From contig CP147778.1 of NCBI GenBank assembly GCA_037305845.1, forward strand, positions 1,312,001-1,376,000: 64,000 bases of DNA, read 5' to 3'. A model generated the notes under the pieces. That model did not search any database. It was given only the letters and a program-made list of their open reading frames with translations, and was not told where the DNA came from. The position numbers and the translations under genes are program-made. This document shows positions 39,369-55,417 of this stretch, piece by piece. How positions within the stretch are numbered: position 1 is the stretch's first letter; the number at the start of each line of letters is the position of its first letter. The stretch comes from Candidatus Freyarchaeum deiterrae (GTDB lineage: Archaea; Asgardarchaeota; Jordiarchaeia; Jordiarchaeales; Jordiarchaeaceae).

Positions 39369-40358
39369 TTGAGCCAGAGCGAGAGATCTTCCGGTGGTTT
39401 GATGGCCAAGGGTAAGAATTTGGAAACTGCTATTAGGGATGCAGAGAAAAATTATTCTGTGGGTAGAATTCTTGATGCGGCCAGGGACTTTCAAACAATT
39501 TCTATTGTTTTTGGGGGGATGAAGGATTATTCATCCGCAGCTAGATTTGCTGCCAAGTCTGGTGATTGTTGGGTTGAGAACAGTGATCCATTAAAAGCGG
39601 CTGGTTTATACGAAAGTACTGCGCAGTACTTTGAACTTCTTAATGATAATGAGAAACATCAACTTTATTATAGGAAAGCTTTGGTTCAGTGTATTCTCGC
39701 GGATAGAAAGGGGGAGAAAACAGGAAAGGTGGCTCTGGCGCGTAATTTGAGAAGAGCCGCGATTTGCCAGTGTAAAATTGATGAGAATATTACGGTTTCG
39801 CAGTATTACCGTAGAGCTGCGGAGCTCTTCATGTCTGCAGCAAAGGACAATCAGGAGAAGGGACTATTTGATGAGGGATTTGACCTTTACAGGTCAGCCG
39901 CAGAGTGTTATTCCCAAATTAGAGATTATTCATCAGAGACTCTTAGCCTGATAGAGGCGTTAATATGTTTGAATAAAATTTTTGAAAACTATTTGCCCAA
40001 TCGTGAGGAGGAAGATTACAAGGAAATTATAAATAGAGAATTGAATAGATTCAATAACACTATTGAGGATTTGTTGAAAGATCTGGAGTTAGTTGATCGG
40101 TTGGATGGTGAGATTCTGGAACGTTTAATGCTTTCACTAGTAATGAGTTTAAATGTCACTATTACACTGGGGAATGGAAATGTGGAGATAGCACGATTGT
40201 TAGAAGGAATTGGAAGAGTAGTTAGAGAGAAGGGTGAAAGCAAGAGGGGGATAAAAATTTTAGAAGAGATTATTCCAAGTTGCAATTTTAGCAGCAGTCG
40301 GGTGAGAAAAGAAGTTATCAAGAGAATAGAAGAGTTGAAGGAGCAATCTGAGGGCTAA
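39369..40358 (+). CDS. Helical-repeat protein, alpha-SNAP/TPR-like
   Basis: Repeated AA..Y..AA..F/Y helices (SAARFAAKSGDCW, KAAGLYESTAQYF, YYRRAAELF, LYRSAAECY). Confidence 0.6.
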   Translation: MSQSERSSGGLMAKGKNLETAIRDAEKNYSVGRILDAARDFQTISIVFGGMKDYSSAARFAAKSGDCWVENSDPLKAAGLYESTAQYFELLNDNEKHQLYYRKALVQCILADRKGEKTGKVALARNLRRAAICQCKIDENITVSQYYRRAAELFMSAAKDNQEKGLFDEGFDLYRSAAECYSQIRDYSSETLSLIEALICLNKIFENYLPNREEEDYKEIINRELNRFNNTIEDLLKDLELVDRLDGEILERLMLSLVMSLNVTITLGNGNVEIARLLEGIGRVVREKGESKRGIKILEEIIPSCNFSSSRVRKEVIKRIEELKEQSEG

Positions 40359-40581
40359 AATTAGCGAGAATTATTGATTTGTGCGGATATTGATTCGTTT
40401 TTAAAGTGAACTATTATTCTTGGTTATTTTGCTTGGTTTTTGGGGTTTATGTTTTTTTGTATAATGTTGGTTTTCTATTTTTTTATTGTGTGGTTAGATA
40501 GAGTTTAAAAATGTGAGAATAAATGTATTAGTTAAGATTTAGTTTAGTTAGGAATCGATTTTAATTTTATGGTGAATCATA

Positions 40582-41283
40582 ATGCCTCGTAATGGGAAAC
40601 AAGAAAGCATTTCGATTGCCGAGGCTGCGAGACTGATTGTGAGTAGTAAGCCGTCTATAATCGATGGTTTGCGTCAGGGAGTGATTAATTTTTCGGCACT
40701 AGCGGACATGATTAAGGAGCAAGTGAGGGAAATGGTGGGTAAGGAATCGGTGAATGTTGATTCTATTAAAATGGCTTTAATGCGCTATGCTGAGGAATTA
40801 GAATCGAAGAAGCAGCTATTGGAAAAACAGATTGTGGAAGTTGTTGCCAACAGTATTCTGGAGCTTAAAAACGATGTGGCTGTTTTGACCATTAATCAGA
40901 AGGGATTCATTGTCCGCATCGATCAAATTTTCAAATCTCTTAACTCTTTTCGCTTCCTTCAGTTGACCCAGGGAACAGAAACCTTTACAGTAGTATCGGA
41001 TCTGCAGAGTAAAGCAAAAATTGTAGAAGTTGTGGGTGAATCGAACATAGTTTTGAGGATCGAAGATCAGTCTGCAATTGTGATTATAAGCCCCAAACAG
41101 ATTTTTGAGGTCCCTGGAGTTATTGCTTACATTACAGACTTGCTATCTACTAATGGTATAAATATTACACAAATCATTTCCTGTTACACTGATACCTTGT
41201 TGATAGTTGATAGGAAGGATGCTTTGAAGGCTTACCAAATGCTTGAAAACAAGATACTTTCCCTGCGTAAAATTTTGAAATAG
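40582..41283 (+). CDS. ACT domain-containing protein (archaeal family with INFSALA N-terminal domain)
   Basis: GVINFSALA, IKMALMRY, and C-terminal PGVIAYITDLLSTNGINI.QIISCYTD. Confidence 0.8.
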   Translation: MPRNGKQESISIAEAARLIVSSKPSIIDGLRQGVINFSALADMIKEQVREMVGKESVNVDSIKMALMRYAEELESKKQLLEKQIVEVVANSILELKNDVAVLTINQKGFIVRIDQIFKSLNSFRFLQLTQGTETFTVVSDLQSKAKIVEVVGESNIVLRIEDQSAIVIISPKQIFEVPGVIAYITDLLSTNGINITQIISCYTDTLLIVDRKDALKAYQMLENKILSLRKILK

Positions 41284-41370
41284 GGTGTCATGAGATAAAA
41301 ATTATTTGTATGAAGAAAAATTTTTAGAGGCTTTTGCGGTCAAGTTTTTTGAAGATTCATGGCGATAGCT

Positions 41371-42636
41371 TTACTGTTTTGCTCCGCACTTAGGGCAAAT
41401 TTTCGTCCATTCTGGAAGCTCTGTTCCGCAAACGCCACAACGTTTGTAACCTTCTCTAGTTTTAGCGGAAACATCGGCCTCAGAGGTTTTGAAGAACTGG
41501 CTGGGCGGCTCAGCACAAGGAGCAGGACTGCCTCGAGTTGAGAGTTTTATTAATGGTCCACCTGGAGTCTGAATGTATTCATCTCCCTGAATATAGCCAG
41601 GGATTTTCCCCTGATTTATTAGATTCGAGATAGCATCGGTTAGCTCGTTATCCGCCTTACATACTCTCCAAGCCATATCGCTTAACTTTATTCTACTATA
41701 GAGATTCTTCCCAACAATTTGAGTCTGCTGAATTGGTTTAGCTGGTGCGCTTACTTTTGGTGTCAAAGCCGGCTCGGTGTACGTGGGTATGGGTCTAGGG
41801 GGAATTGCGGCAGCGGGTGTGGATACGCGTAGTTCTTTTTGTGGGCGTGGCGGGGGGGCTAATTGAGGTGTTTGTGGTTTTAGGGGTGGTTGAGGTGGAA
41901 TTGAGATTTTTAAGGCGGGTTGTGCGGTTTTAGGTTTGGCAACTAGTGGTTCTGGTTTTTCTTCCAATTTTGGTTTTGTTTTGGGCGGCGTTATTAGTGG
42001 TGATTCTAATGGTTGGGTAACCAGTTGCCATTCATCACTCGGTTCTTGAATTGTTGTTTCTGGCTGTGGGGTCACTTTTCTTTCTTTCAGCGGTTGAGGT
42101 TCTGATGCAGCCCAATGGGGTGAGACTGTTTCCTGAGAGTTTTCCTTGCTTGTCTGTGGTTCTGGTCCAGCTGTTTCAAGAGCTATTTTTTCAAACATAT
42201 CCATTGAGTTCTTATCCTCAGTATTCTGAGTCTCCTCCAAGAAAGTGTCTAGAGTTTCTTCTTCTGTATTTTTTTGAGGAAGTAGTTCTTTGTAAGAGCT
42301 TAGTACTTGTTCCACGAGTTGAATTTCATCTTCGGTGTACTTGTTTTTTGTACTATTCCAGTATTCAACGGCCTTGTCAAAGTTGCCGGAGGTTAGCTCT
42401 TTGAGTGATAAGGCGAAAAGATAATGGTGATCTTTTATTTTGCCTTTTTTACATGATTCTAGTGCTTTCTCAGTGAAACCTGCAACTGAAGCGGAATCTC
42501 CATTAGATATACTGTAGTAGCCTGCCAATACGAAAAAATCTGATGCAATATCATATGCTTCCTCTCCAAGGAGCAGGTTGGCTGTCTCTGAATAGTATTC
42601 AATCTTTCTTTTTACTTCGCCCTGCTTATTAGCCAA
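41371..42636 (-). CDS. Multidomain protein: helical repeat, Pro-rich linker, PCI-like winged helix, C-terminal zinc ribbon
   Basis: LYSRIKLSDMA...ELTDAISNLINQGKIPGYI (PCI-like) and CGVCG...CPKCG. Confidence 0.6.
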   Translation of the reverse strand: MANKQGEVKRKIEYYSETANLLLGEEAYDIASDFFVLAGYYSISNGDSASVAGFTEKALESCKKGKIKDHHYLFALSLKELTSGNFDKAVEYWNSTKNKYTEDEIQLVEQVLSSYKELLPQKNTEEETLDTFLEETQNTEDKNSMDMFEKIALETAGPEPQTSKENSQETVSPHWAASEPQPLKERKVTPQPETTIQEPSDEWQLVTQPLESPLITPPKTKPKLEEKPEPLVAKPKTAQPALKISIPPQPPLKPQTPQLAPPPRPQKELRVSTPAAAIPPRPIPTYTEPALTPKVSAPAKPIQQTQIVGKNLYSRIKLSDMAWRVCKADNELTDAISNLINQGKIPGYIQGDEYIQTPGGPLIKLSTRGSPAPCAEPPSQFFKTSEADVSAKTREGYKRCGVCGTELPEWTKICPKCGAKQ

Positions 42637-42712
42637 TACTAATCACCAAATTATTATTCTTAATGAATTCATACCTTGCAGTATTTATTAACCTTCGTGG
42701 ATTAAGAAATGG

Positions 42713-43471
42713 TTATTCAGCGCTTTGAAGGCATTGTTTTATAATTTTTAACTCTGATTCACTCAGGTTGTCTTTAATTTTGTTAAGGGATTGTTTAGCT
42801 GCTTTGAGGGAGCCATCACAAATGGCTTTGCTCAGAGTGGCTAGTTCACGATTTTCATCTAGAATATTATTTTTTTCGCATATTTTTAAAGCTCTATCCG
42901 AATTTTTAATGGCATCTTCTCTATTAGAAATAGCAAAGTTACACATCGATGCCCATGCCAGATTAGCTGCTACATAACCATAATCTTTTTCTTCTAGCAA
43001 CATTTCAGCGTATTCTAGATAATTTTGAGCCGCTAATGTAAAAAAATTCTTACAAGCATTCGAGTTGTGAAGAGCCTTGTTGGTTATTGCTGCTTCGCTG
43101 TAAAGGAGCGCCGCGGATGCGAGATTGCCTGCAGTAGTCATTTTTTCTCCTTGAGCGGCGTAGATTTCTGCGGCTTCTCTCATGAATTTTTTAAACGCCT
43201 CGTCATTTCCAAGATTCTTATGACATTGAGCGATGCCTTCGGAATCCATAGCTACTGAGACGGCATAGTTTAGCTTTTTATGATGTTTGCTGGCTTCCGA
43301 ATAACATGTTATGGCTGTTTTATAGTCTTTAAATTTAGAGTAGCAGTCGCCCGCTTCTTTCAATTTATCTGCAGCCTTCTCGATAAATTCTTGACCAGCA
43401 ACAGTGCCAGTGGCTTGTGATTCATAATTCCTTGCTTTGTTAAGCATCGCTTCACAATCTTTTTCGTTCAC
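42713..43471 (-). CDS. alpha-SNAP/TPR-like helical-repeat protein
   Basis: EKAADKLKEAGDCYSKFKDYKTAITCYSEAS, REAAEIYAAQG, SAALLYSEAA. Confidence 0.6.
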   Translation of the reverse strand: MNEKDCEAMLNKARNYESQATGTVAGQEFIEKAADKLKEAGDCYSKFKDYKTAITCYSEASKHHKKLNYAVSVAMDSEGIAQCHKNLGNDEAFKKFMREAAEIYAAQGEKMTTAGNLASAALLYSEAAITNKALHNSNACKNFFTLAAQNYLEYAEMLLEEKDYGYVAANLAWASMCNFAISNREDAIKNSDRALKICEKNNILDENRELATLSKAICDGSLKAAKQSLNKIKDNLSESELKIIKQCLQSAE

Positions 43472-43662
43472 AGCTTTCCCACCGAGAACGCTCTACAATC
43501 TAAATACAACTTTGCTAACTTATATGTTTTGAGGAATCAACAATTATCATCATCATCATCATCTTTAAGAAGAATGTTTTCTAATAATAATTTTCCATTT
43601 TATTTCTAAGCTTGCGGAGGCATCATAATTTAAAGTATCATCTTGGTAGCGTTATGATTATT

Positions 43663-44337
43663 TTATTTTGTGTTACTTTTCGCAATAGTGAAGCAATTTT
43701 CAACAAGTCGTGTGTATTCATAGTATTGTGTTTCTCCAAAATAATCTTTGGAGAGTTTTTCTTGAAATTTTACCCATTGAATTTTTGCTTTTTCCAATGT
43801 TCCCTGAAGAAGCGCCCCACAGGACTTTGCCAACTCCCGCCTCCATATTCTTATTCTTTTTGTTTGGGCTAAATCTACGGCTTTCATGGCGAGGTTTTCA
43901 GCAAATTTTCTGTCTCCTAGGAGGAAACTGCAAAAAGAAGCCCAGCTGTACTCAGAAATTGAGGATTCGATTAATGAAAGCCTTCGCTTTTTACCACTCT
44001 GGTTTACTGCCAGATTCTCCTCAGCCGCATTCACGTGCATCTTTACAGATTCCGAGAGATTTTCTACGAATTTTTCATTATTGCCAACTCCACGGTAGTA
44101 AGAAGCGAAGCCACTATACACCAGAGCGATATACTCCTTCTTATTCAAGTGTTCGGTTAGTACCTGAAGGGCCTTTTTATAGCAATCAAAAGAGCTCACC
44201 AAATCACTGGATTCTCTAAAAAAACATCCTGCCCGAATGTATCTCAGAAAAGCCCCACTGTAATCATTACTCTTTACATGCTCTCTGGCATCATTCATGT
44301 ATTCTAATGCGGTTTTCTCTGCGATCATTGAAAACAC
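43663..44337 (-). CDS. alpha-SNAP/TPR-like helical-repeat protein
   Basis: GAFLRYIRAGCFF...SFDCYKKA; the C-terminal module is visibly paralogous to 42713..43471. Confidence 0.55.
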   Translation of the reverse strand: MFSMIAEKTALEYMNDAREHVKSNDYSGAFLRYIRAGCFFRESSDLVSSFDCYKKALQVLTEHLNKKEYIALVYSGFASYYRGVGNNEKFVENLSESVKMHVNAAEENLAVNQSGKKRRLSLIESSISEYSWASFCSFLLGDRKFAENLAMKAVDLAQTKRIRIWRRELAKSCGALLQGTLEKAKIQWVKFQEKLSKDYFGETQYYEYTRLVENCFTIAKSNTK

Positions 44338-44624: not shown

Positions 44625-45905
44625 TTGTTAAAAGACAGAATCGCTACCTTTTCAGCACGTCCTGATGAAGTAGATCTCTGCGTGCTACTCTACTCCGGGG
44701 GTCTAGACACTTCCTGTATGCTTAAATGGTTACAGGAAAACTATAACACCGAAGTTATCACGGTAACTCTTAATGTGGGGCAAGCAAAAGAGTTTGAAGA
44801 GATAGAGAACAAGGCCAAAAAACTCGGCGTTAAAAAGCACTACACAATCGACGCCAGGGAAGAGTTTGTACATGAATACGTATTCAAAGCCATTAAGGCA
44901 AACGCACTCTATCAGGATGCTTACCCTATAAGTTCATCACTATCAAGGCCCCTGATTGCAAAGTGGGGAGTAGAAATCGCTAAGAGAGAAGGTGCTAAAG
45001 CAATCGCACATGGTTGTACAGGTAAGGGTAATGATCAAGTGCGTTTTGCTATTACGATTAATACTCTTGCTCCAGATATGAAGATAATTGCGCCAGTGGT
45101 TGAGTGGGGTATGACCCGTGAGGATGAGATTGCTTATGCTCAAGAACATGACATTCCGATTCCGGTTACAGTAAATTCGCCCTACAGTATTGATGAGAAT
45201 TTGTGGGGTAGAAGTATTGAATGCGGAGTTTTGGAACACCCGGAAGTTGAGCCACCCCCCGATGCGTATCTTTGGACAACTCCACCCGAGAAGGCTCCCG
45301 ATGATCCAGCTTATGTTGAGATAGGTTTCGAAGAGGGTATTCCAGTTTCTGTTGACGGTGTCAGAATGAATGGCGTGGATTTAATTCTGAAGGTTCACGA
45401 GTTGGGATGTGTCCACGGGGTTGGAAGGGTAGACCACATGGAGGACCGGATTGTTGGTTTAAAATCGAGAGAGGTTTATGAGTGCCCGGCGGCGACCATA
45501 ATTCTGAAAGCACACCGGGATCTTGAAAAGTTTGTTTGTACAAGGCATGAAAACACGTTCAAGAAGCTTGTTGATGAACAATGGACGAGTTTGGTTTATA
45601 CGGGTCTCTGGGTTGAGCCACTTAGGGAAGATTTGGAAGAGTTCATTGATAGGGTAAACAAGAAAGTTACTGGTATGGTGCGTCTTAAGCTCTTCAAGGG
45701 AAACGCTGCTGTCGTGGGTCGTAGTTCCGAGTATGCTCTTTATGATGAGAATTTGGCAACCTATGATAGGAAGTCTACTTTTAACCAGTTGGCTTCATTC
45801 GGGTTTATTGAGTTATGGGGATTACAGTCTAGAATGGCTCAGGCGCTCAAACCAGAGGATAAGAATGTTCATAGTAAAAATGTAAAAGTAGTAAAGTCCA
45901 AATAA
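44625..45905 (+). CDS. argG: Argininosuccinate synthase
   Basis: YSGGLDTS, HGCTGKGNDQVRF, YSIDENLWGRSIE, GLKSREVYE. Confidence 0.97.
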   Translation: MLKDRIATFSARPDEVDLCVLLYSGGLDTSCMLKWLQENYNTEVITVTLNVGQAKEFEEIENKAKKLGVKKHYTIDAREEFVHEYVFKAIKANALYQDAYPISSSLSRPLIAKWGVEIAKREGAKAIAHGCTGKGNDQVRFAITINTLAPDMKIIAPVVEWGMTREDEIAYAQEHDIPIPVTVNSPYSIDENLWGRSIECGVLEHPEVEPPPDAYLWTTPPEKAPDDPAYVEIGFEEGIPVSVDGVRMNGVDLILKVHELGCVHGVGRVDHMEDRIVGLKSREVYECPAATIILKAHRDLEKFVCTRHENTFKKLVDEQWTSLVYTGLWVEPLREDLEEFIDRVNKKVTGMVRLKLFKGNAAVVGRSSEYALYDENLATYDRKSTFNQLASFGFIELWGLQSRMAQALKPEDKNVHSKNVKVVKSK

Positions 45906-45926
45906 ACGTTTTAAAAGAAGGAAAAC

Positions 45927-47426
45927 TTGATGAGCGATAAGCTTTGGGGGGGAGGTTTTAGTAAAAAGACCAAAGAAGAAGTGGAAAAATTCACTTCAGG
46001 TGAGGATATACAACTCGATGAAAGGCTAGCCATTTATGACGTAATCGGTACTATTGCACATGATTATATGTTGTACGAGATAGGTGCTCTTAACAAGGAA
46101 ACTCTTCAGAGAATTTTTATTTCGCTTGAGGGTATAAAAGACCGAATTGAGAAGAGGGAATATCAGCTCCGCCCTGAGTTGGAAGATGTACATATGAACA
46201 TTGAAAAAACAGTGATTGAGGAAATCGGTGAGGAACAGGGTGGGATGATGCATTTAGCGCGTTCTAGGAACGACCAAGTATTAGTGGATATGCGAATGTA
46301 CCTTAGGGACCAGATAAACGAAGTTCAGGAATTGGTTTTTAATTTAATTTCCACATTCATTGACGTGGGTGAGAAAAATTTAGAGATGCTTATAGTAGGC
46401 TATACTCATACACGCCAGGCGCAGCCAACTACAGTTGCACATTGGTGTGTAGCTTATGTTGACTCTCTTCTGCGAATTGTTGACAGGTTGGAGGAGGTCT
46501 ATGTTAGAGTTAACCAGTGTCCACTTGGTTCAGGGGCAATCAGCGGCGTTAGCTGGCCAATTGATCGAAAATTAACAGCGAGTTTGCTGGGTTTTGATGG
46601 TATTCAGGAAAACACCATAGACGCTATATCTTCAAGGGGTGAAGTTGAATCTGAGATAATATTTGTTCTTTGTCTTTTAATGGCTGTTCTTAGTAGGTTA
46701 TCCGAAGAAATAATTTGGTGGTCCACTAGCGAGTTCGGTGTAATCGAGTTGGACGAGGTTTACACAACGGGAAGTAGTTTAATGCCTCAGAAAAAGAACC
46801 CCGACGTGGCGGAACTTATTAGGGGGAAGGTTGGCAGAATTTACGGGTACCTAGTACAGGTTCTTACGATTCTTAAGGGACTTCCTTCTGGGTACAACAG
46901 AGATCAACAAGAGATCAAAGGGCCAATTTTTTACGGTTTGGATACCGTTAAATCTGTGATTCAAGTAGTGCCGGGTTTAATCAGTACAATCAAGTTCAAT
47001 CAGGAGAGAATGTTAAACCTGATGTTGGACAGTTATTCGACAGTCACGGAACTTGTGGATTTACTAATTAAGAAGGCGCAAATATCTTTTCGTTCTGCTC
47101 ACAGGATAGTAGGGATGTATGTTACACAGACGCTTAATAGTGGTACAAAGGTGGATCCAGATTTGTTGGCTGGTCTAGTGAAGGGAGAAACTGGTAAAGA
47201 AATTAGGATAGACGCGGATATGATAGAGGAGGCGATAGATCCAGCATCAACTATAGAGAGGAGGAGCCACATTGGCGGACCTGCCCCCGTTGAGGTGGGA
47301 AGAATGCTGGTAAATAGGAGAGAAATCCTGAATGTAAAAAAGGAAAATCTTGTTCAAAAAAATGAAAAAATTAAAGCCGCGTATAAAAAGCTAGATAATC
47401 TTGTTCAAAATTTCGCTGATGAGTGA
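45927..47426 (+). CDS. argH: Argininosuccinate lyase
   Basis: KLWGG, EDVHMNIE, RSRNDQ, GYTH.RQAQP, GSSLMPQKKNPD. Confidence 0.97.
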   Translation: MMSDKLWGGGFSKKTKEEVEKFTSGEDIQLDERLAIYDVIGTIAHDYMLYEIGALNKETLQRIFISLEGIKDRIEKREYQLRPELEDVHMNIEKTVIEEIGEEQGGMMHLARSRNDQVLVDMRMYLRDQINEVQELVFNLISTFIDVGEKNLEMLIVGYTHTRQAQPTTVAHWCVAYVDSLLRIVDRLEEVYVRVNQCPLGSGAISGVSWPIDRKLTASLLGFDGIQENTIDAISSRGEVESEIIFVLCLLMAVLSRLSEEIIWWSTSEFGVIELDEVYTTGSSLMPQKKNPDVAELIRGKVGRIYGYLVQVLTILKGLPSGYNRDQQEIKGPIFYGLDTVKSVIQVVPGLISTIKFNQERMLNLMLDSYSTVTELVDLLIKKAQISFRSAHRIVGMYVTQTLNSGTKVDPDLLAGLVKGETGKEIRIDADMIEEAIDPASTIERRSHIGGPAPVEVGRMLVNRREILNVKKENLVQKNEKIKAAYKKLDNLVQNFADE

Positions 47427-47555
47427 GGCGTGTTCTGTTCGGAACTAGTTATTTGGGATACAGTTGCTTTTAGCACGTTACGTTTTTATATTATTTTTCT
47501 TTTGTTTGTCTTATTCACATATAATACTTTTTTACAGATATTGGAGGTTACAATA

Positions 47556-47729
47556 GTGAAAGGCAAATGTCCAGAGTGTTACTTTGAATTCGAGGTAACA
47601 GATAATGTTATGATTGGTGAAATAATTGAGTGCCCCGATTGCGCAGTTCAATTAGAAGTGATTGAAAAGAACAATGGTGGCATTGTTTTCGAAGTCGCGC
47701 AGCTAGAGGAAGAAGATTGGGGTGAATAA
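47556..47729 (+). CDS. lysW: LysW amino-group carrier protein
   Basis: GTG start after GGAGG; CPEC...CPDC zinc finger and the C-terminal EDWGE signature. Confidence 0.95.
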   Translation: MKGKCPECYFEFEVTDNVMIGEIIECPDCAVQLEVIEKNNGGIVFEVAQLEEEDWGE

Positions 47730-47818
47730 ATAGATAATTATATTTTAATATATTTTCATATTTTATTAAATTTTCATGGAGAGTAGAGATTAGGAAGAAA
47801 ACCAAGGGGAGTACATCG

Positions 47819-48661
47819 ATGAACATTGGGCTGATTTACAACCAGATATCTTGGGAAGAAAAATCAATCACTGAAGAGGCTAAAAAACAGGGAGTGAACG
47901 TAAAACCTTTAGACATTAGAAAAATTTATCTCAAAATACAGGATGGACAAGAATTTTCAGAAGTTGATCTTTTTCTCGAAAGATCTTTGAGTTATACTAA
48001 GGGACTCTTTTCTACAATGGTTCTTGAAAATCAGGGGTTCCGAGTCATAAACTCTACAGAGTGTCAAGAAATCTGCGGAAATAAATTAAAAACATCAGTC
48101 GCGTTAAATGGATTGGGGATATTACAACCGAAAACCTACGTTGCTTTTTCATTAGAATCAGCCCTTGAAGCCCTCGAAAAGTTGGGATACCCTGCAATTG
48201 TTAAACCGTTAATTGGAAGTTGGGGAAGACTAGTAGCGATTTTAAAGGACGAACAGTCAGCAAAAGCTGTACTTGAATCACGAGAGGTTTTGGGTTCAGT
48301 CTTTCACAAAGTTTACTATTTGCAAGAATTCATAGACAGTGGAAGGGACATCAGAGTTTTTGTAATAGGCGACTCGGTTGTCGCTGCGATGTATCGCTAT
48401 TTGATTCCAGGGGATTGGAGGAGCAATGCCACTATCGGTGGCAAAGCAGAAGCTTGTGAGGTTACCCCTGAAATAGAAGATTTGGCCTTGAAAGCGGCGG
48501 GGGCGACTAAGGGCGAAATTGTAGGGGTGGACTTATTCGAAAAGGATAACCAGCTTCTCGTAAACGAAGTTAACCACGCACCCGGATTCAGACACATCGT
48601 ATCAGCTACAGGAGTTAACATTGCAGAGAAAATGATAGAGTATTTACAGACATTAGAATAA
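47819..48661 (+). CDS. lysX: LysX/ArgX ATP-grasp ligase ([LysW]-aminoadipate/glutamate ligase)
   Basis: WEEK, KP..GSWGRLV, YYLQEFI, RDIRVFVIG, WRSNA, NEVNH. Confidence 0.9.
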   Translation: MNIGLIYNQISWEEKSITEEAKKQGVNVKPLDIRKIYLKIQDGQEFSEVDLFLERSLSYTKGLFSTMVLENQGFRVINSTECQEICGNKLKTSVALNGLGILQPKTYVAFSLESALEALEKLGYPAIVKPLIGSWGRLVAILKDEQSAKAVLESREVLGSVFHKVYYLQEFIDSGRDIRVFVIGDSVVAAMYRYLIPGDWRSNATIGGKAEACEVTPEIEDLALKAAGATKGEIVGVDLFEKDNQLLVNEVNHAPGFRHIVSATGVNIAEKMIEYLQTLE

Positions 48662-48763
48662 AAATAACTCTATTCAAAACTTGAGAAAATTTCTTAAACC
48701 TTTAAAAACGAATTTTTAATAAATTATAAAAAAAGTTAAGAGACATTCAGGTGGGAAATCGAG

Positions 48764-49561
48764 TTGATTATCACGATTAAAATTGGCGGAGCTATGGTGG
48801 ATAAGGAAACAGGAAATCTAATTGCAGACATAGGCAAAGTAAGCAAAGAACACAAGATAGTTATTGTTCATGGAGGGGGCCCTCAGATAAGTGAGATTTC
48901 GAAGAAACTGGGCAAAGAGCCGGTGTTTGTGATGTCACCTAGCGGCTTTAGAAGCAGATTTACCGATAGGGAAACCTTGGATATATCCATCATGGCTATG
49001 GCAGGAAAAGTGAACAAAAGTATAGTTGCCTTGCTTAGGAAAAACCAGATTCCAGCTATCGGATTAACTGGATTAGATGGAAGGACGTTAATCGCGGAGA
49101 GAAAGGATAAAATAATTGCTGTTGAGAATGGAAAAAAGAGGGTAATAAGAGGGGATTACAGCGGAAAAGTTACGGAAGTAAATGGTAATCTTCTTAAATT
49201 AGTCATTGATAACGGATATGTTCCAGTTGTAGCGCCCATCGGAATCAGTCACGAGAGCGAACCAGTAAACCTCGATGGTGATAGGGCGGCCGCGCATATT
49301 GCTAAGGCGATAAATGCGGACATTTTTATCTCGCTTACTGATGTTCCGGGAGTGATAATCGACGGAAAATTGGTTAATGGTCTTTATAAGTATGAAGCTG
49401 AAGAAATTCTAAAAAAAGTTAATGGAGGAATGCGTAAGAAGATATTCGCCGCTCTGGAAGCATTAGATCTCGGCATAAAACCCATAGTTATTTGCTCTGG
49501 GCTTGAAAAAAATCCTATATCTTCGGCGCTCACACTTAAAACAGGGACTGTGATAAAATGA
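48764..49561 (+). CDS. lysZ: [LysW]-aminoadipate/glutamate kinase
   Basis: IKIGG, VHGGG, SPSG..SR.TD, RGDYSGK, NLDGDRAA, GGMRKK. Confidence 0.92.
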   Translation: MIITIKIGGAMVDKETGNLIADIGKVSKEHKIVIVHGGGPQISEISKKLGKEPVFVMSPSGFRSRFTDRETLDISIMAMAGKVNKSIVALLRKNQIPAIGLTGLDGRTLIAERKDKIIAVENGKKRVIRGDYSGKVTEVNGNLLKLVIDNGYVPVVAPIGISHESEPVNLDGDRAAAHIAKAINADIFISLTDVPGVIIDGKLVNGLYKYEAEEILKKVNGGMRKKIFAALEALDLGIKPIVICSGLEKNPISSALTLKTGTVIK

Positions 49562-50670
49562 TGAACCCCATAGAATACTTTTTAGAGATGCTTGAAATTC
49601 CCAGTGCCTCAGGGAAGGAACACCGGTTCTCGATTTTCTTAATGGAGAGTATGAAAAATCTGGGTTACGAGGTTAAACAAGACGAGGCGGGAAACGTAAT
49701 AGGTAAAATAGGTAAGGGAGAACCCATGCTTCTTTTTTCATCTCACATTGACACCGTGCCCGGAGAGATTCCAATAAGAGAAGAGAACGGAAGAATTTAT
49801 GGTCGTGGGGCTGTGGATGCGAAGGCCTCCATTGCGTCCATGATACTGGCAGGCTCTTTTCTTCCAGAGATGAATGTTAATGGCACAGTAATATTTGCTG
49901 GCCTCGTGGAGGAGGAATCCAGCCTAAGAGGAATTCAAACTTTGCTAGAGGGAGATCTCGGAGCGGACTGGGCGATATTTGGAGAACCAACCAAATGTGA
50001 TAGAATATGCTTGGCATCCAAAGGTAGACTGCTGTTTAAAATAAATTTAAAAACTGAAGGTGGACATGTCGCCTGCTCTTGGGCTTATAAAAATTCAATA
50101 GAACTCGCATACAAGCTTTGGAAAAAATTCAAGGAAAACGTCGAGGCTCATGAAAAGACACCTTTCTTTTCCACAGTCACTAATCTCACCCAGATATCGG
50201 GGGGATCTGCTCCCAATGTTGTTCCCGGTGATTGCCAATTATTTATAGATGTCCGCTTTCCACACTTGGTTAAATCCACAAAGCTACTGGGAATAATCGA
50301 GAAAACCTTCAACGAATTTAAAGAAATGAATGAAGTTCAAATAAGTTACGAGGTACTGAGCCAGATAGAAGGATTTAGAGCTCCAAAAGATTCCATATTA
50401 GTAAAAGAATTAGCTAAAGCGATCAGGGAAGTTAGAAACATAGACCCACGTTACATCAGAAAAACTGGAACCTGCTTCATGAATCTAATTGGTCCATGGC
50501 GTAACATTCCTACAATTAGTTATGGGCCAGGAGACCCCGCGCTAGAACACACTAACGATGAACATATTGAGAAACAAGAATATTTAGATTCGCTAGAGAT
50601 TCTTAAAAAAACAATAAAAAACATTCTTAGCAAAAAAAATACTGAACATGAAGTACCAAATACTCTTTGA
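49558..50670 (+). CDS. lysK: [LysW]-lysine/ornithine hydrolase (M20 peptidase)
   Basis: HIDTVPG, GRGAVDAK, VEEE, GEP, RKTGT..MN, YGPGD..LEHT. Confidence 0.88.
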   Translation: MMNPIEYFLEMLEIPSASGKEHRFSIFLMESMKNLGYEVKQDEAGNVIGKIGKGEPMLLFSSHIDTVPGEIPIREENGRIYGRGAVDAKASIASMILAGSFLPEMNVNGTVIFAGLVEEESSLRGIQTLLEGDLGADWAIFGEPTKCDRICLASKGRLLFKINLKTEGGHVACSWAYKNSIELAYKLWKKFKENVEAHEKTPFFSTVTNLTQISGGSAPNVVPGDCQLFIDVRFPHLVKSTKLLGIIEKTFNEFKEMNEVQISYEVLSQIEGFRAPKDSILVKELAKAIREVRNIDPRYIRKTGTCFMNLIGPWRNIPTISYGPGDPALEHTNDEHIEKQEYLDSLEILKKTIKNILSKKNTEHEVPNTL

Positions 50671-50795
50671 AATTTGGTATGCCTTAATTTGTCTGCTGGC
50701 TGTTTAGAAATAGAGTTGTTTAAACCACACTATTATTTCAGCACTATACTATGTTTCCATTTTTCGGGTTTTACTCTTTCAACACCTGACTTGAA

Positions 50796-51791
50796 TTAGT
50801 CTCGCATTATTAGTGAGAGGATAGCTTTCTGTACGTGTAACCTGTTTTCCGCTTCATCATAAACTACTGAGTGTTGGCCGTCTATTACTCCATCGGTGGC
50901 TTCGATGTTTCTTCTTATTGGTAGGCAGTGCATAAAAATCGAATCTTTGTTTGTAAGTTCCATTAACTCCTCGTTGCAAATCCAATCCCGATAGTTCACT
51001 CTCAGCTTCTTTTCTTCTTCAAATTTTCCGTAAGATTTGAGGGAGCCCCAAGCCTTTACATATATTATGTCAGCATCCCTATACGCCTCTTCCCTACTGT
51101 GTGAGACATCTAAAGTGCAACCGTTAGTCTCACAGTTGCTTCTCGCCCACTCCATTATCTTTTCATCTAACTCAAAGCCCTCAGGATGAAGTAGAGTTAC
51201 ATCCAACCCGAACCGTGTAGCTATAAGAAGTGCAGAGTTGGGAACGCTGACCGGCAGCGGCCGCGGGTGGTAAACCCAGCTCAGAACAAACTTTTTACCC
51301 CTCAGATTTCCTTTTTTCTCCTTAATAGTCAGTATATCTGCAAGCTCCTGACACGGGTGGAAGAGATCGCACTCCATGTTTATTACTGGTTTATCAGACC
51401 ACTTCGCGAATTCACGCACCACTTCATTACTCTTACCGTACTGCCAGTCTGTGATGTTCGGGAAAATGCGAATGGATATCCCATCCCCATACCTTGCCAT
51501 TACCGACGCGGTGTCCTTTATGGATTCGGAGCTCTTACCTATCCACGACTTCTCCGAATCCATGTAAACGGAATGCCCACCAAGCTGAGTCATACCGATT
51601 TCAAATGATAGGCGAGTACGCGTACTAGGATTAAAGAAGAGCGTGATAAGCGACTTCCCCTGCAGTTCGGAAGAGAATTTCTTAGGGTTTTTCTTCATTT
51701 CTTTAGCGAGTTCTAACACGGATTCCAGTTCATCGAAGCTCAATTCTTGAGTGGTTATTAGATCCTTACCTCTTAAATCGTCCTGAGACAT
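50796..51791 (-). CDS. N-acyl-ornithine carbamoyltransferase-like (ArgF'/AOTCase-SOTCase type)
   Basis: FNPSTRTR, NME...HPCQELA, W.YHPRPLP proline-rich loop, YVKAWGS, HCLPIRRN. It lacks the DxxxSMG motif of canonical OTCase. Confidence 0.85.
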   Translation of the reverse strand: MSQDDLRGKDLITTQELSFDELESVLELAKEMKKNPKKFSSELQGKSLITLFFNPSTRTRLSFEIGMTQLGGHSVYMDSEKSWIGKSSESIKDTASVMARYGDGISIRIFPNITDWQYGKSNEVVREFAKWSDKPVINMECDLFHPCQELADILTIKEKKGNLRGKKFVLSWVYHPRPLPVSVPNSALLIATRFGLDVTLLHPEGFELDEKIMEWARSNCETNGCTLDVSHSREEAYRDADIIYVKAWGSLKSYGKFEEEKKLRVNYRDWICNEELMELTNKDSIFMHCLPIRRNIEATDGVIDGQHSVVYDEAENRLHVQKAILSLIMRD

Positions 51792-51983: not shown

Positions 51984-52322
51984 CTAGCACATGCCTGCGT
52001 CTTCAAGGCGTTTAACTACTTGATCATATTTTGCTTTGCTGTTTATGATGTCGTTAACCATCTCTTCGTTCATATGGGTTCCCGGCCGAACCTTAACCTC
52101 GGCATCTACCCCTAACTTGTCTTTCAGTTTCTTTTTGATTAATACGCCTATAATTGATCCCATAGGGCACATTTCTGATGTTGGCTTGAATGTTACCTGT
52201 ACTTTCTTGTCTGACACGATTGTTATATCGTTTTCATTCACCATATCCAGATCCAGTATTGATTCTGGCATTTCTGGATCTTGTACATCTTTTAATACAT
52301 CAAGAACTTGTTGCTTGTTCAA
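51984..52322 (-). CDS. DUF59 / SufT-like Fe-S cluster assembly protein
   Basis: V.DPE...SILDL.MV and PTSEMCPMG motif. Confidence 0.85.
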   Translation of the reverse strand: MNKQQVLDVLKDVQDPEMPESILDLDMVNENDITIVSDKKVQVTFKPTSEMCPMGSIIGVLIKKKLKDKLGVDAEVKVRPGTHMNEEMVNDIINSKAKYDQVVKRLEDAGMC

Positions 52323-52468
52323 CGTGTTAGTCTCCTTAAATCTCTTTTCGGGTTTTTATAATGGTTTGTTTCTTATAAAGGTTTTTGTCAGGTTGTGGAA
52401 AAATCTTCAACAAACGTGTAGAGGTTTTCCACTTATCCAAGGGTATTAAGAAACAGTATTTTTTGGAA

Positions 52469-53719
52469 TTAGGTTTCATCAAGTTTTTTCAAGACTTTTG
52501 CCATGAGGTATCTTAAGGGTATATTTGTTTCTTGTGATATTCTTTTAAGGTCTTCAAATTCTGGTTTCATGTTAATAATCTTTCCACTGTTATCTCTAGC
52601 GATTTTGATCCTCAAATCGTAGGATTTATTTCCAACGTTAATAATAGTTGTGTTAATTTCGCGTTTCAAAATCAGTCGTGGAGTGGAGGTTAAACGAACT
52701 CCTAGGCTTCCAGTTTCATCTATTAATGTTCTTGCAAGTTTTTGTGCATCCTCGGGATTTGAAATTACTTTAATAATTTGTCCGGGGCGGCCCTTCTTCG
52801 TAATAACAGGGATTATACTAACGTCTTTAGCACCCTTTTCGAAAAGCGTGTCAATGGTTTGTCCTATTATTTCCCCCGAGATGTCATCTATATTAGTTTC
52901 TAAAACTACAACCGAATCCTCAATGAGATTATAACGTTCCTCGTTTTGAAGGTGACTTTCACCTATGACTATTCTTAAAATATTCGGCAGGTTTGGGAAA
53001 TCTTTCATTCCTGCACCGAATCCTACCCCAGCGATCTTGGTGTTTGGAAGAAAGTTCGAAAATACGGCTCCCAAGCTGGAAATAATTGAAGCTCCTGTCG
53101 GTGTAGTCAGTTCAGATTCAATAGGCCCGCCTAGTACCGGAAAATTGCTCTTTTTAGCTATTTCTAATACAGCTGGAGGGGGAACAGATACAGTTCCGTG
53201 TGAAAACGTTACTAGGCCTCCCCCGAGGGCAATGGGTGTACAAAACCATTGGCAGTTTTTCATCAAGCCAAGGTCCTCGCAAGCTACCGCGGAGCCTATA
53301 GCATCTGCAAGAGTGTCGGCTGAACCAGCCTCATGCAAAAGTGCGCAATCCAAATTTTCCCCATGAACTTTGGATTCGGCTTCTACTATAGTTCTCACAA
53401 TTTTGACTGCAAAGTCTTTAGCTTCTTCCGATATTTCGAGTTCCTTCGTACAAGCAGTGACTGCATCCAGAATATCCTTTCCCGTTCTTTCTTCCTCTGT
53501 TTCATCTAGTAATATGCGAACCTCGGTTGCGGTCAACCCACACCTAGTGGTTTTGTTAATAATCAGTTCTATTCCTTTGCAGCCGCTAAGAAATTTTGGA
53601 ATAAATTCCATAGCATTAGTCACTTTATCTCGATTTGCACCCAAATCCAATAATGCCCCAAGAAACATATCTCCTGAAATTCCAGCCGCTTGGCAGTCTA
53701 AGAAAGCGATTTTGCTCAT
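52469..53719 (-). CDS. larC: Nickel-pincer cofactor nickel insertase
   Basis: GISGDMFLGAL, AE.KVHG, HEAG..D, HG..SVP.PA, ELTTPTGA, ETNIDD, KKGRPG, KPEFED. Confidence 0.93.
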   Translation of the reverse strand: MSKIAFLDCQAAGISGDMFLGALLDLGANRDKVTNAMEFIPKFLSGCKGIELIINKTTRCGLTATEVRILLDETEEERTGKDILDAVTACTKELEISEEAKDFAVKIVRTIVEAESKVHGENLDCALLHEAGSADTLADAIGSAVACEDLGLMKNCQWFCTPIALGGGLVTFSHGTVSVPPPAVLEIAKKSNFPVLGGPIESELTTPTGASIISSLGAVFSNFLPNTKIAGVGFGAGMKDFPNLPNILRIVIGESHLQNEERYNLIEDSVVVLETNIDDISGEIIGQTIDTLFEKGAKDVSIIPVITKKGRPGQIIKVISNPEDAQKLARTLIDETGSLGVRLTSTPRLILKREINTTIINVGNKSYDLRIKIARDNSGKIINMKPEFEDLKRISQETNIPLRYLMAKVLKKLDET

Positions 53720-53720
53720 C

Positions 53721-54530
53721 TTAGTTACTTCCTTTATTGTTTTCTGATTTCGTTCGGTATTCTGCTACTCTGTTTGCTATTAAGGCTGCTGTGGCTCCTG
53801 CACCAAACCCGTTGTCAATATTTACCACGCAAAGTCCCGCTGCACATGATTGCAACATAGTAATGAGCGCGCCGAGCCCTTTTCCTCCAAATCCATAACC
53901 AGTGCTTGTTGGAACTCCTATGACTGGAACGTTAACCAGGCTAGCGACTATTGAAGGGAGTGTCCCTTCCATACCCGCGGCTACAACTATGCAGTCAACT
54001 TCCGCCTCTATCATTTTACCTAAGGGAGGAAAAACTCTATGTAATCCCGCAATACCAACATCGTAGGAAGTAAAAATCTCGCAACCCATCGATTCAGCAA
54101 TTATTTTTGCCTCATCAGCTACCGGGATGTCCGAAGTGCCTGCGGTTATGATTCCCACTTTTCCACCAGTTTTTTTGAAAAGTTCTTCTTGATGACTTAC
54201 TCTAATAGTTCCAGATTTTTCAAATATTTCGAGTTTAAAAATCTCAGGAACTTGCTTTTTTAGAAGTGTAATTTGTTCCTCACTCGCTCGAGTAATTAAA
54301 ACGTACGTTTTTTGTGAAATTACGTTATTGACAATCTTAACTAGGTCTTCGGGTCTCTTCCCTCTCCCATAAATTACTTCGGGGACCCCTTTCCGTAGCT
54401 CACGACCTATGTCAAATTTCACCAAGTCATCAATTTCTAAAACGCAATTAGTTCTCAGTAAATTCTCCGCCTCTTCGATAGAAATTTCTCCAGAGTAAAA
54501 TTTCTCTAGAATATTTCGTAGCTGACTCAT
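53721..54530 (-). CDS. larB: NaAD carboxylase/hydrolase
   Basis: R.GVPEVI, AGTSDIPVA.EA, DVGIAGLHR, AGMEG.LPS, PTSTGYG, VVNIDNGFGA. Confidence 0.95.
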   Translation of the reverse strand: MSQLRNILEKFYSGEISIEEAENLLRTNCVLEIDDLVKFDIGRELRKGVPEVIYGRGKRPEDLVKIVNNVISQKTYVLITRASEEQITLLKKQVPEIFKLEIFEKSGTIRVSHQEELFKKTGGKVGIITAGTSDIPVADEAKIIAESMGCEIFTSYDVGIAGLHRVFPPLGKMIEAEVDCIVVAAGMEGTLPSIVASLVNVPVIGVPTSTGYGFGGKGLGALITMLQSCAAGLCVVNIDNGFGAGATAALIANRVAEYRTKSENNKGSN

Positions 54531-54574
54531 TTCGGTTCAATCCTTATCTAACTATTATTCGAGTCATTTGGAAA

Positions 54575-55417
54575 TTAAGTTTGGAGAGTAATCTTCTCTT
54601 TTAAAACCTCGTCCATAGCTCCTGTCCGATACCCCTCTAGGTCTAAGGTGCAATACTTGAATCCCAATTCCTTCAACTTTTCTGCTATCCTATCCAGAAT
54701 CACTGTTGAGAATAGCTTTTCTCGTTCATCTTTTCCGACTTCGACTCTTGCCATATCTCCATGACTTCTAACCCTGAGTATCTTTACACCGATTAATTGT
54801 TTGATGAATTTCTCAGCCTCAGCGATGCGGTGGAGCTTCTCCTCAGTGATAGTTTCGCCATAAGGTATTCTTGAGGATAAACAGGCCATAGAAGGCTGAT
54901 TGTAAACACTCAATCCTCTTTCTTGAGCAATAAGCCTTATTTCTTCTTTGGTAATCCCTGCCATCAGATAGGGAGACAAGATTCCCTCTTCTCTCAGAGC
55001 CAAAGCTCCCGGACGGTGGCCGACTATTTCAGAAGCATTAGTTCCCTCAACGATCAATTCGAAGCCTTTCTCCTCAGCAATTTTTTTCAAATTTCTTGAC
55101 AACTCCTTTTTACAATAATAGCATCTATTATCTGGATTCGCCACAAATCGAGGATTGCTCAACCTGTCAATCAAAATTACTTTGTGATCTACTCCAAGCT
55201 CTCTGGCTACTTTTTTTGCCCTCTCCACTTCTTCTGAAGGGATAATCTGTGAGCTTACGGTTATTGCTAAAACTTTTTTAGCTACATCTTTAGCCAAGCT
55301 TACCATGAGGCTGCTATCAACTCCGCCAGAGAACGCTACAAGCACGCTTTTGCCTCTGAGGGCATTATGGACGCTATCTATTTTTGATTGTATTTCGTGG
55401 TTACCCAATTTCCGCAA
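54575..55417 (-). CDS. larE: ATP-dependent sulfur transferase LarE
   Basis: AFSGGVDS PP-loop, RCYYCK, HRPG, ACLSSRIPYG, GYRTG.M. Confidence 0.93.
   Translation of the reverse strand: MRKLGNHEIQSKIDSVHNALRGKSVLVAFSGGVDSSLMVSLAKDVAKKVLAITVSSQIIPSEEVERAKKVARELGVDHKVILIDRLSNPRFVANPDNRCYYCKKELSRNLKKIAEEKGFELIVEGTNASEIVGHRPGALALREEGILSPYLMAGITKEEIRLIAQERGLSVYNQPSMACLSSRIPYGETITEEKLHRIAEAEKFIKQLIGVKILRVRSHGDMARVEVGKDEREKLFSTVILDRIAEKLKELGFKYCTLDLEGYRTGAMDEVLKEKITLQT

Follow-up and report, generated by a model that had tools for sequence, protein, structure and literature searches.

We analysed a window of 64,000 nucleotides from Candidatus Freyarchaeum deiterrae (contig CP147778.1, positions 1,312,001 to 1,376,000), whose complete genome consists of a single contig of 3,576,204 bases. 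In this window the genes argG, argH, lysW, lysX, lysZ and lysK converge on a transcarbamylase gene (50796-51791, minus strand). We propose that this enzyme, hereafter TC, a name that we also use for its short-loop Asgard clade, probably carbamoylates ornithine bound to the amino-group carrier protein LysW and that a variant LysK then releases citrulline. As the active site appears to be shaped to accept only N-blocked ornithine and the gene lies beside genes for LysW-ornithine synthesis, citrulline is likely to be made on the carrier. The points that we count for this proposal are the N-acyl-ornithine active site, the fact that no other source of N-blocked ornithine was found, the co-occurrence with LysW, TC genomes in which ArgF was not found, the linkage to lysK, the Phe or Met in LysK and the basic loops of the enzyme. 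An earlier note on this DNA had described the same gene order, and all genes were confirmed at their places. It had also suggested LysW-ornithine as the substrate. The co-occurrence, the lack of a detectable acetyl or succinyl route, the LysK motif and the basic loops speak for this suggestion, while a canonical ArgF in the same genome speaks against it, and the activity is one that we infer.

Active site and 80s loop of the transcarbamylase

TC exceeded the cut-off of the N-acetylornithine carbamoyltransferase model (NF003384, 381 bits against 288) and failed both main ornithine transcarbamylase (OTCase) models. Its closest named homologues were found in Freyarchaeota/Jordarchaeum and other Asgard groups, and its best solved relatives, by sequence as well as by fold, were the N-acetylornithine transcarbamylase (AOTCase) structures of Xanthomonas with about 49% identity. 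An AlphaFold model of TC (pLDDT 95) matched AOTCase 3KZK best (Z 46.3, root-mean-square deviation 1.3 over 318 residues); other matches were the OTCase of P. furiosus (Z 41.1) and N-succinylornithine transcarbamylase (SOTCase; Z 38.6, about 35% identity). Residue roles were taken from the review by Shi, Allewell and Tuchman (PMC4581275). The carbamoyl-phosphate motifs SxRT, HPxQ and HxLP and the conserved Arg are present (S56-T59, R108, H145-Q148, H288-P291, R317). TC shares with AOTCase the proline-rich loop, here YHPRPLP, and an extended 120s loop, a 15-residue segment (108-122) compared with 5 residues in OTCase. E140 and K246, which correspond to the ornithine-carboxylate binders E144 and K252, and the 80s-loop tryptophan W83 (W77 in AOTCase) were invariant across 99 alignment rows.

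The two enzymes differ at the residues Glu92, Asn185 and Lys302 of AOTCase, which are S88, P180 and E297 in TC. These agree with the three-residue signature of SOTCase (A/S/P/V/Q, P, V/I/E) in the tables of the review (PMC4581275), and the succinyl-carboxylate anchors H176, R178 and R278 of SOTCase have their equivalents in H175, R177 and R293. Across the TC clade H175 and R293 are kept, and position 177 is mostly K or R. Judged by sequence alone, TC is a succinyl-type enzyme.

It is unlikely that TC, as a knotted enzyme, does the job of ArgF and acts on free ornithine released by LysK. The OTCase motif DxxxSMG, Asn167 and the Lys of FxKxSxRT were not found in TC and occur in the other enzyme of this genome (C1:1533373). 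TC has neither the Asp nor the SMG motif with which a free alpha-amino group would be bound, and K246 occupies that place. The conservation of the acyl-carboxylate anchors argues in the same direction. Nevertheless, the 80s loop of TC has the length of an OTCase loop, and the described LysW/ArgW routes release free ornithine before carbamoylation (PMC10433800). The assignment of TC as an OTCase was rejected.

From its Trp to its Glu the 80s loop spans 7 residues in 43 of 43 Asgard rows compared with 17 residues in 77 of 77 bacterial AOTCase/SOTCase rows, so that the Asgard loop is 10 residues shorter; the bacterial sequences were among the matches listed in a mostly bacterial contig scan and served as a control rather than a census. 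In a set of 150 distant representatives, the sequences with an acyl-ornithine signature were long-looped, whereas OTCases and other knotted types were mostly short-looped. The long loop has therefore probably arisen by insertion, the short one being the older state. A quick tree placed the Asgard TC sequences, which roughly tracked Asgard families, outside a well-supported long-loop group, without showing them as a single clade. The earlier note had listed AOTCase/SOTCase signatures, and HPCQELA, YHPRPLP, KAWG and HCLPIRRN were indeed found while DxxxSMG is absent. Its alignment of a Ser by eye was correct (S88 aligns with Glu92 of Xanthomonas AOTCase), and the 80s loop which it took to be much shorter is so, although this is better read as a lack of the bacterial insertion than as a deletion. 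Tentatively, TC might represent a transcarbamylase for a protein-bound amino acid whose Asgard-inherited carrier route is ancestral; bacterial AOTCase and SOTCase would then have arisen by gaining the 10-residue lid when the carrier gave way to small acyl groups, a scenario that we consider possible rather than probable.

It is known that LysW-using enzymes have basic patches. The 80s, 120s and 240s loops together have a mean net charge of about +5.5 in the TC clade compared with about -3.5 in the bacterial enzymes, and no such difference is seen elsewhere in the protein. Position 261 is K or R in 100% of the clade compared with 23% of the bacterial enzymes. Judging from its sequence, TC may offer an open channel and a basic patch. 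The predicted complex of two TC copies with LysW scored 0.47 compared with 0.38 for an unrelated control protein, and it counts neither for nor against the proposal.

YgeW (YTCase) also belongs to the knotted group and has a short 80s loop, but TC has kept the Trp of the 80s loop, is without the extra helices, scored 169 against the YgeW cut-off of 453 and has no adjoining carbamate kinase gene; a YgeW-type assignment was rejected, as was an assignment as putrescine transcarbamylase (PTCase). TC appears to work like AOTCase and SOTCase, yet it should not be filed as either, since it has neither the AOTCase residues nor the long loop and no succinyl pathway was found.

Co-occurrence with LysW in Asgard genomes

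Our survey comprised 332 Asgard genomes, in which the TC clade was set at an E-value below 1e-109 (numbers with G, L and f are our labels for genomes, loci and families). The clade was found in 41 genomes, 40 of which were checked by sequence. A LysW-like gene was present in 39 of the 41 (38 by standard search and the divergent LysW of G139) compared with 21 of the 291 others. Hence, the co-occurrence of the clade with lysW, which had been put forward as a test of the LysW-ornithine idea, was borne out. Likewise, argG was present in 38 of the 41 TC genomes and in 25 of the 291 others; LysK was found in 38 TC genomes and a match to ArgC/LysY in 39. Of the argG-positive genomes, 50 had LysW by standard search and 36 of these carried TC; another 13 had no LysW by this search, and 2 of these carried TC, one of the two being G139. 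The remaining 11 without a LysW-like gene, 9 of which come from two related genera, had no TC (0/11). LysW was not found in the TC genome G141 (82% complete), and no TC was found in four genomes with A-type LysW and a LysK match (G120, G128, G144 and G236; 80-92% complete).

TC lies tail-to-tail with lysK at 15 loci from five families with differing upstream neighbours, and the ends overlap in eight of them. The genes argG and argH share a cluster with the TC set in families f1, f15 and f16. At the Lokiarchaeia-type loci L048-L066 (f18, f19) lysW is separated from lysX-lysZ-lysK, and TC is located among unrelated genes, for example ubiquitin-system and deacetylase-like ones; the whole set is still found in the genome.

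Canonical ArgF was not found in 10 of the 41 TC genomes. These ten include all TC-carrying members of two genera; among them are G131, G132 and G134, which are 98-100% complete and each have argG. As no other ornithine-type transcarbamylase than TC was found in these ten genomes, an action on free ornithine would also suit them; its retention beside a canonical ArgF in the other 31 argues against this.

Even less likely, in our view, is the reading of TC as an archaeal SOTCase with a small N-acyl-ornithine (succinyl or free gamma-glutamyl) as its substrate, which an unrecognised acyltransferase would supply and for which the A-type LysK would be the deacylase. The succinyl-type residues and all three succinyl anchors fit such an activity, the genomes G139 and G143 keep TC without a normal LysW set, and the F. 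deiterrae genome encodes unrecognised GNAT proteins below the cut-off. However, ArgJ was found in only one of the 41 TC genomes (G112), and unlike AOTCase, TC is partnered with LysW genes and not with an acetyl pathway. The succinyl-type ArgA, an alternative N-succinylglutamate synthase predicted by GapMind 2026 (10.1101/2024.10.14.618325), was not found in the 41 TC genomes by a search that had no positive control and did not directly cover the Bacteroides BT3761 family, whereas its gene was seen at 50 of the bacterial loci. In addition, all of the 77 listed bacterial sequences are long-looped with neither lysW nor lysX at their loci, and TC was missing from the 11 argG-positive genomes without a LysW-like gene. 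In the F. deiterrae genome ArgJ was not found, there are no ArgB-like kinases besides two LysZ, and no short N-acetylglutamate synthase (NAGS) exceeded the cut-off. The genome check for argF and argJ/argA that the earlier note had suggested gave a divided answer: a canonical ArgF, one half of what had been named as refuting the idea, is present, whereas ArgJ and a short NAGS over the cut-off were not found.

In about 50 bacterial loci among L092-L169 (e.g. L153:5716-6795, plus strand, and L159:4387-5535, plus strand) we observed succinyl-type clusters in which argG and argC are separated by an unannotated gene for a protein of about 360 amino acids. This gene has no match in Pfam, is DUF1611-like in the ESM Atlas and fits the N-succinylglutamate synthase of GapMind 2026 (10.1101/2024.10.14.618325).

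Partner enzymes and the proposed route

The window lysK (49558-50670, plus strand) encodes an A-type M20 hydrolase, a putative LysW-citrulline hydrolase, whose best PDB match is the LysK 5XOY. It reads KTGTCFMN, whereas the solved LysK 5XOY and 4Q7A read KTGTSDMN, and it scored 257 with the LysK equivalog model NF003367, under the cut-off of 363. The motif KTGTxDMN is a conservation observed in our analysis and not a published criterion. Its Asp is replaced by Phe or Met in 36 of 36 A-type LysK (34 from TC genomes, the other two from G128 and G236) and retained in 8 of 8 LysK that belong to a second cluster or to a genome without TC. Among 120 database homologues the Asp was present in 79, including 11 of 11 named sequences from Bathyarchaeia/Nitrososphaerota; named Asgard homologues had Phe at this position where it was readable. 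As a correlation, the loss of the acidic residue would suit the neutral side chain of citrulline over a charged amine.

In the proposed route, LysX would load glutamate onto the C-terminal Glu of LysW, a preference that we infer because its gene adjoins argG and argH. According to known LysW chemistry, LysZ together with LysY and LysJ from a second cluster would convert the loaded LysW to LysW-gamma-ornithine. TC would then transfer the carbamoyl group to the delta-amino group of an ornithine whose alpha-amino group is still tied to LysW in a gamma-glutamyl amide. The ornithine carboxylate would be gripped by E140 and K246, and the free alpha-carboxylate of the terminal Glu of the carrier by H175, R177 and R293. 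Since this gamma-glutamyl amide would resemble an N-succinyl group that is one carbon longer and bears the carrier chain, LysW-ornithine would fit into a succinyl-type pocket that has no lid; the absence of the 10-residue loop would leave space for the carrier tail, and the acidic carrier would make contact with the basic loops at the rim. Finally, the variant LysK would free citrulline, and ArgG and ArgH would complete arginine. Genes, residues, conservation and co-occurrence are observed here, and all substrates as well as the action of TC ahead of LysK are proposed.

The LysW/ArgW ornithine pathway of Sulfolobus, Thermococcus kodakarensis and haloarchaea has homologues of LysW, LysX, LysZ, LysY, LysJ and LysK as well as argG and argH in common with this system. 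It hands free ornithine to a canonical ArgF, whereas the linked transcarbamylase is of the acyl-ornithine type here and the LysK and LysX motifs are variant. No description of a carrier-bound citrulline route was found in the literature searched for LysW with transcarbamylase, citrulline or Asgard, most subscription papers lying outside this search, and a search directed at Freyarchaeia likewise gave none; within this scope the arginine variant is undescribed, as the earlier note had assumed. If carbamoylation on the carrier is true, it would be one more way to make arginine, joining two routes known separately, namely the synthesis of ornithine under the protection of a carrier and its carbamoylation ahead of deprotection, and biosynthetic ornithine would be kept separate from the free ornithine pool of an ordinary ArgF. 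To our knowledge, TC would be the first transcarbamylase that acts on a substrate bound to a carrier protein. The annotation as N-acetylornithine carbamoyltransferase would be corrected across several Asgard groups, and the ArgF gap would be filled in ten genomes.

Several observations weigh against the carrier-bound route. The F. deiterrae genome encodes a canonical ArgF (TIGR00658, 454 bits), which adjoins ftsY in a run of ribosomal genes, and a second, complete cluster lysW-X-Y-Z-J-K with an Asp-type LysK (C1:1,071,699-1,076,880). As these would let the standard route run without it, TC is not needed in this genome, and 31 of the 41 TC genomes have a canonical ArgF. TC is unlinked to lys/arg genes in families f18-f20, and the TC genomes are mutually related, so that the counts are not independent events. 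The three-loop charge sum of the window TC itself is only +3, and several bacterial candidates for acyl-citrulline hydrolases retain a nearby Asp. In G139 and G143 (99% and 98% complete) TC is unchanged-looking and argG, argH, LysY and canonical ArgF are present; neither LysK nor a normal LysX was found, and the only LysW cluster is a divergent one. Such clusters (L062:9856-12136, minus strand, L085 and L088 in G143, G140 and G139) encode a LysW-like protein, which ends with DEEDWRE in G143, together with a LysZ kinase and a remote ATP-grasp protein of 382 amino acids; G140 has its divergent cluster besides the normal set. Lastly, the motif F-M-A-HI of the window LysX (47819-48661, plus strand; TIGR02144, 298 bits, cut-off 275.6; aligned to 3VPD and 3VPB) is none of the five-residue specificity motifs defined for ArgX (I-Y-V-GF), LysX (F-I-T-NS) and the bifunctional enzyme (Y-I-T-NA) (PMC12998189). 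Where the usual xEF motif has Glu, this LysX has Gly and its relatives have Gln or Gly. The window LysX possibly represents a separate route to glutamate specificity.

The atypical LysX motif, the divergent carrier clusters in some TC genomes and a carbamate kinase in the genome would also be consistent with a LysW-bound substrate serving another end, such as the conversion of LysW-lysine to homocitrulline or a reverse reaction that recovers carbamoyl phosphate. We regard this as the least probable explanation, because argG and argH stand in the same cluster in three families, argG is far more frequent in TC genomes than in others, and TC never adjoins carbamate kinase among its recurrent neighbours. 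Carbamoylation on the carrier ranks first, followed by an action on free ornithine, then on a small N-acyl-ornithine and finally this other carrier-bound use.

The window and the rest of the genome

The cluster begins with argG for argininosuccinate synthase (44625-45905, plus strand; NF001770, 568 bits, cut-off 334), the sole copy in the genome, and argH for argininosuccinate lyase (45927-47426, plus strand; TIGR00838, 500 bits, cut-off 279.5). The A-type lysW (47556-47729, plus strand) encodes a carrier protein of 57 amino acids which in the alignment has two CxxC motifs and the C-terminal EDWGE, within EEEDWGE. It has a GTG start at 47556 preceded by a GGAGG site, and its product scored below the NCBIfam cut-offs and above that of Pfam PF21344 (46 bits compared with 27). 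The LysW-aminoadipate/glutamate kinase gene lysZ (48764-49561, plus strand; NF010662, 268 bits, cut-off 194) follows lysX. NCBIfam cut-offs were exceeded by argG, argH, LysX, the LysW-type kinase LysZ and, for LysK, with the LysK/ArgE subfamily model. On opposite strands, lysK and TC converge at a distance of 125 nt. lysY and lysJ are absent from the window cluster and located in the second LysW cluster, which makes the pathway set complete genome-wide with LysW, LysX, LysZ and LysK in the window. The LysX of the second cluster has the motif F-I-T-TT, near the lysine-type motif (PMC12998189). A promoter and terminator scan gave a signal no better than chance.

Carbamoyl-phosphate synthetase, the carbamate kinase and an arginase-family protein are also encoded in the genome, and no arginine deiminase was found. 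The gene at C1:2770870-2772225 (L220:2870-4225, plus strand) probably encodes the arginine synthetase ArcE, judging from weak similarity to cyclic 2,3-diphosphoglycerate synthetase and from a motif that we take to be that of ArcE. The similarity of ArcE to this synthetase has been reported (PMC11032458). ArcE, carbamate kinase and the canonical ArgF could form an ATP-yielding route of arginine breakdown, and it is plausible that the ArgF of this genome is catabolic or serves salvage.

TC is the last gene of a larE-larB-larC run. Upstream of it on the same strand (51984-55417, minus strand) we found larE-larB-larC-like genes for the nickel-pincer cofactor and a gene for a small SUF/PaaD-type protein, an arrangement observed in families f1 and f2. 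On the other side of the cluster, the region 39369-44337 encodes several helical-repeat proteins, one of which (39369-40358) has a weak SNAP match in Pfam, and an ACT-domain protein (40582-41283) that could be an amino-acid-binding regulator.

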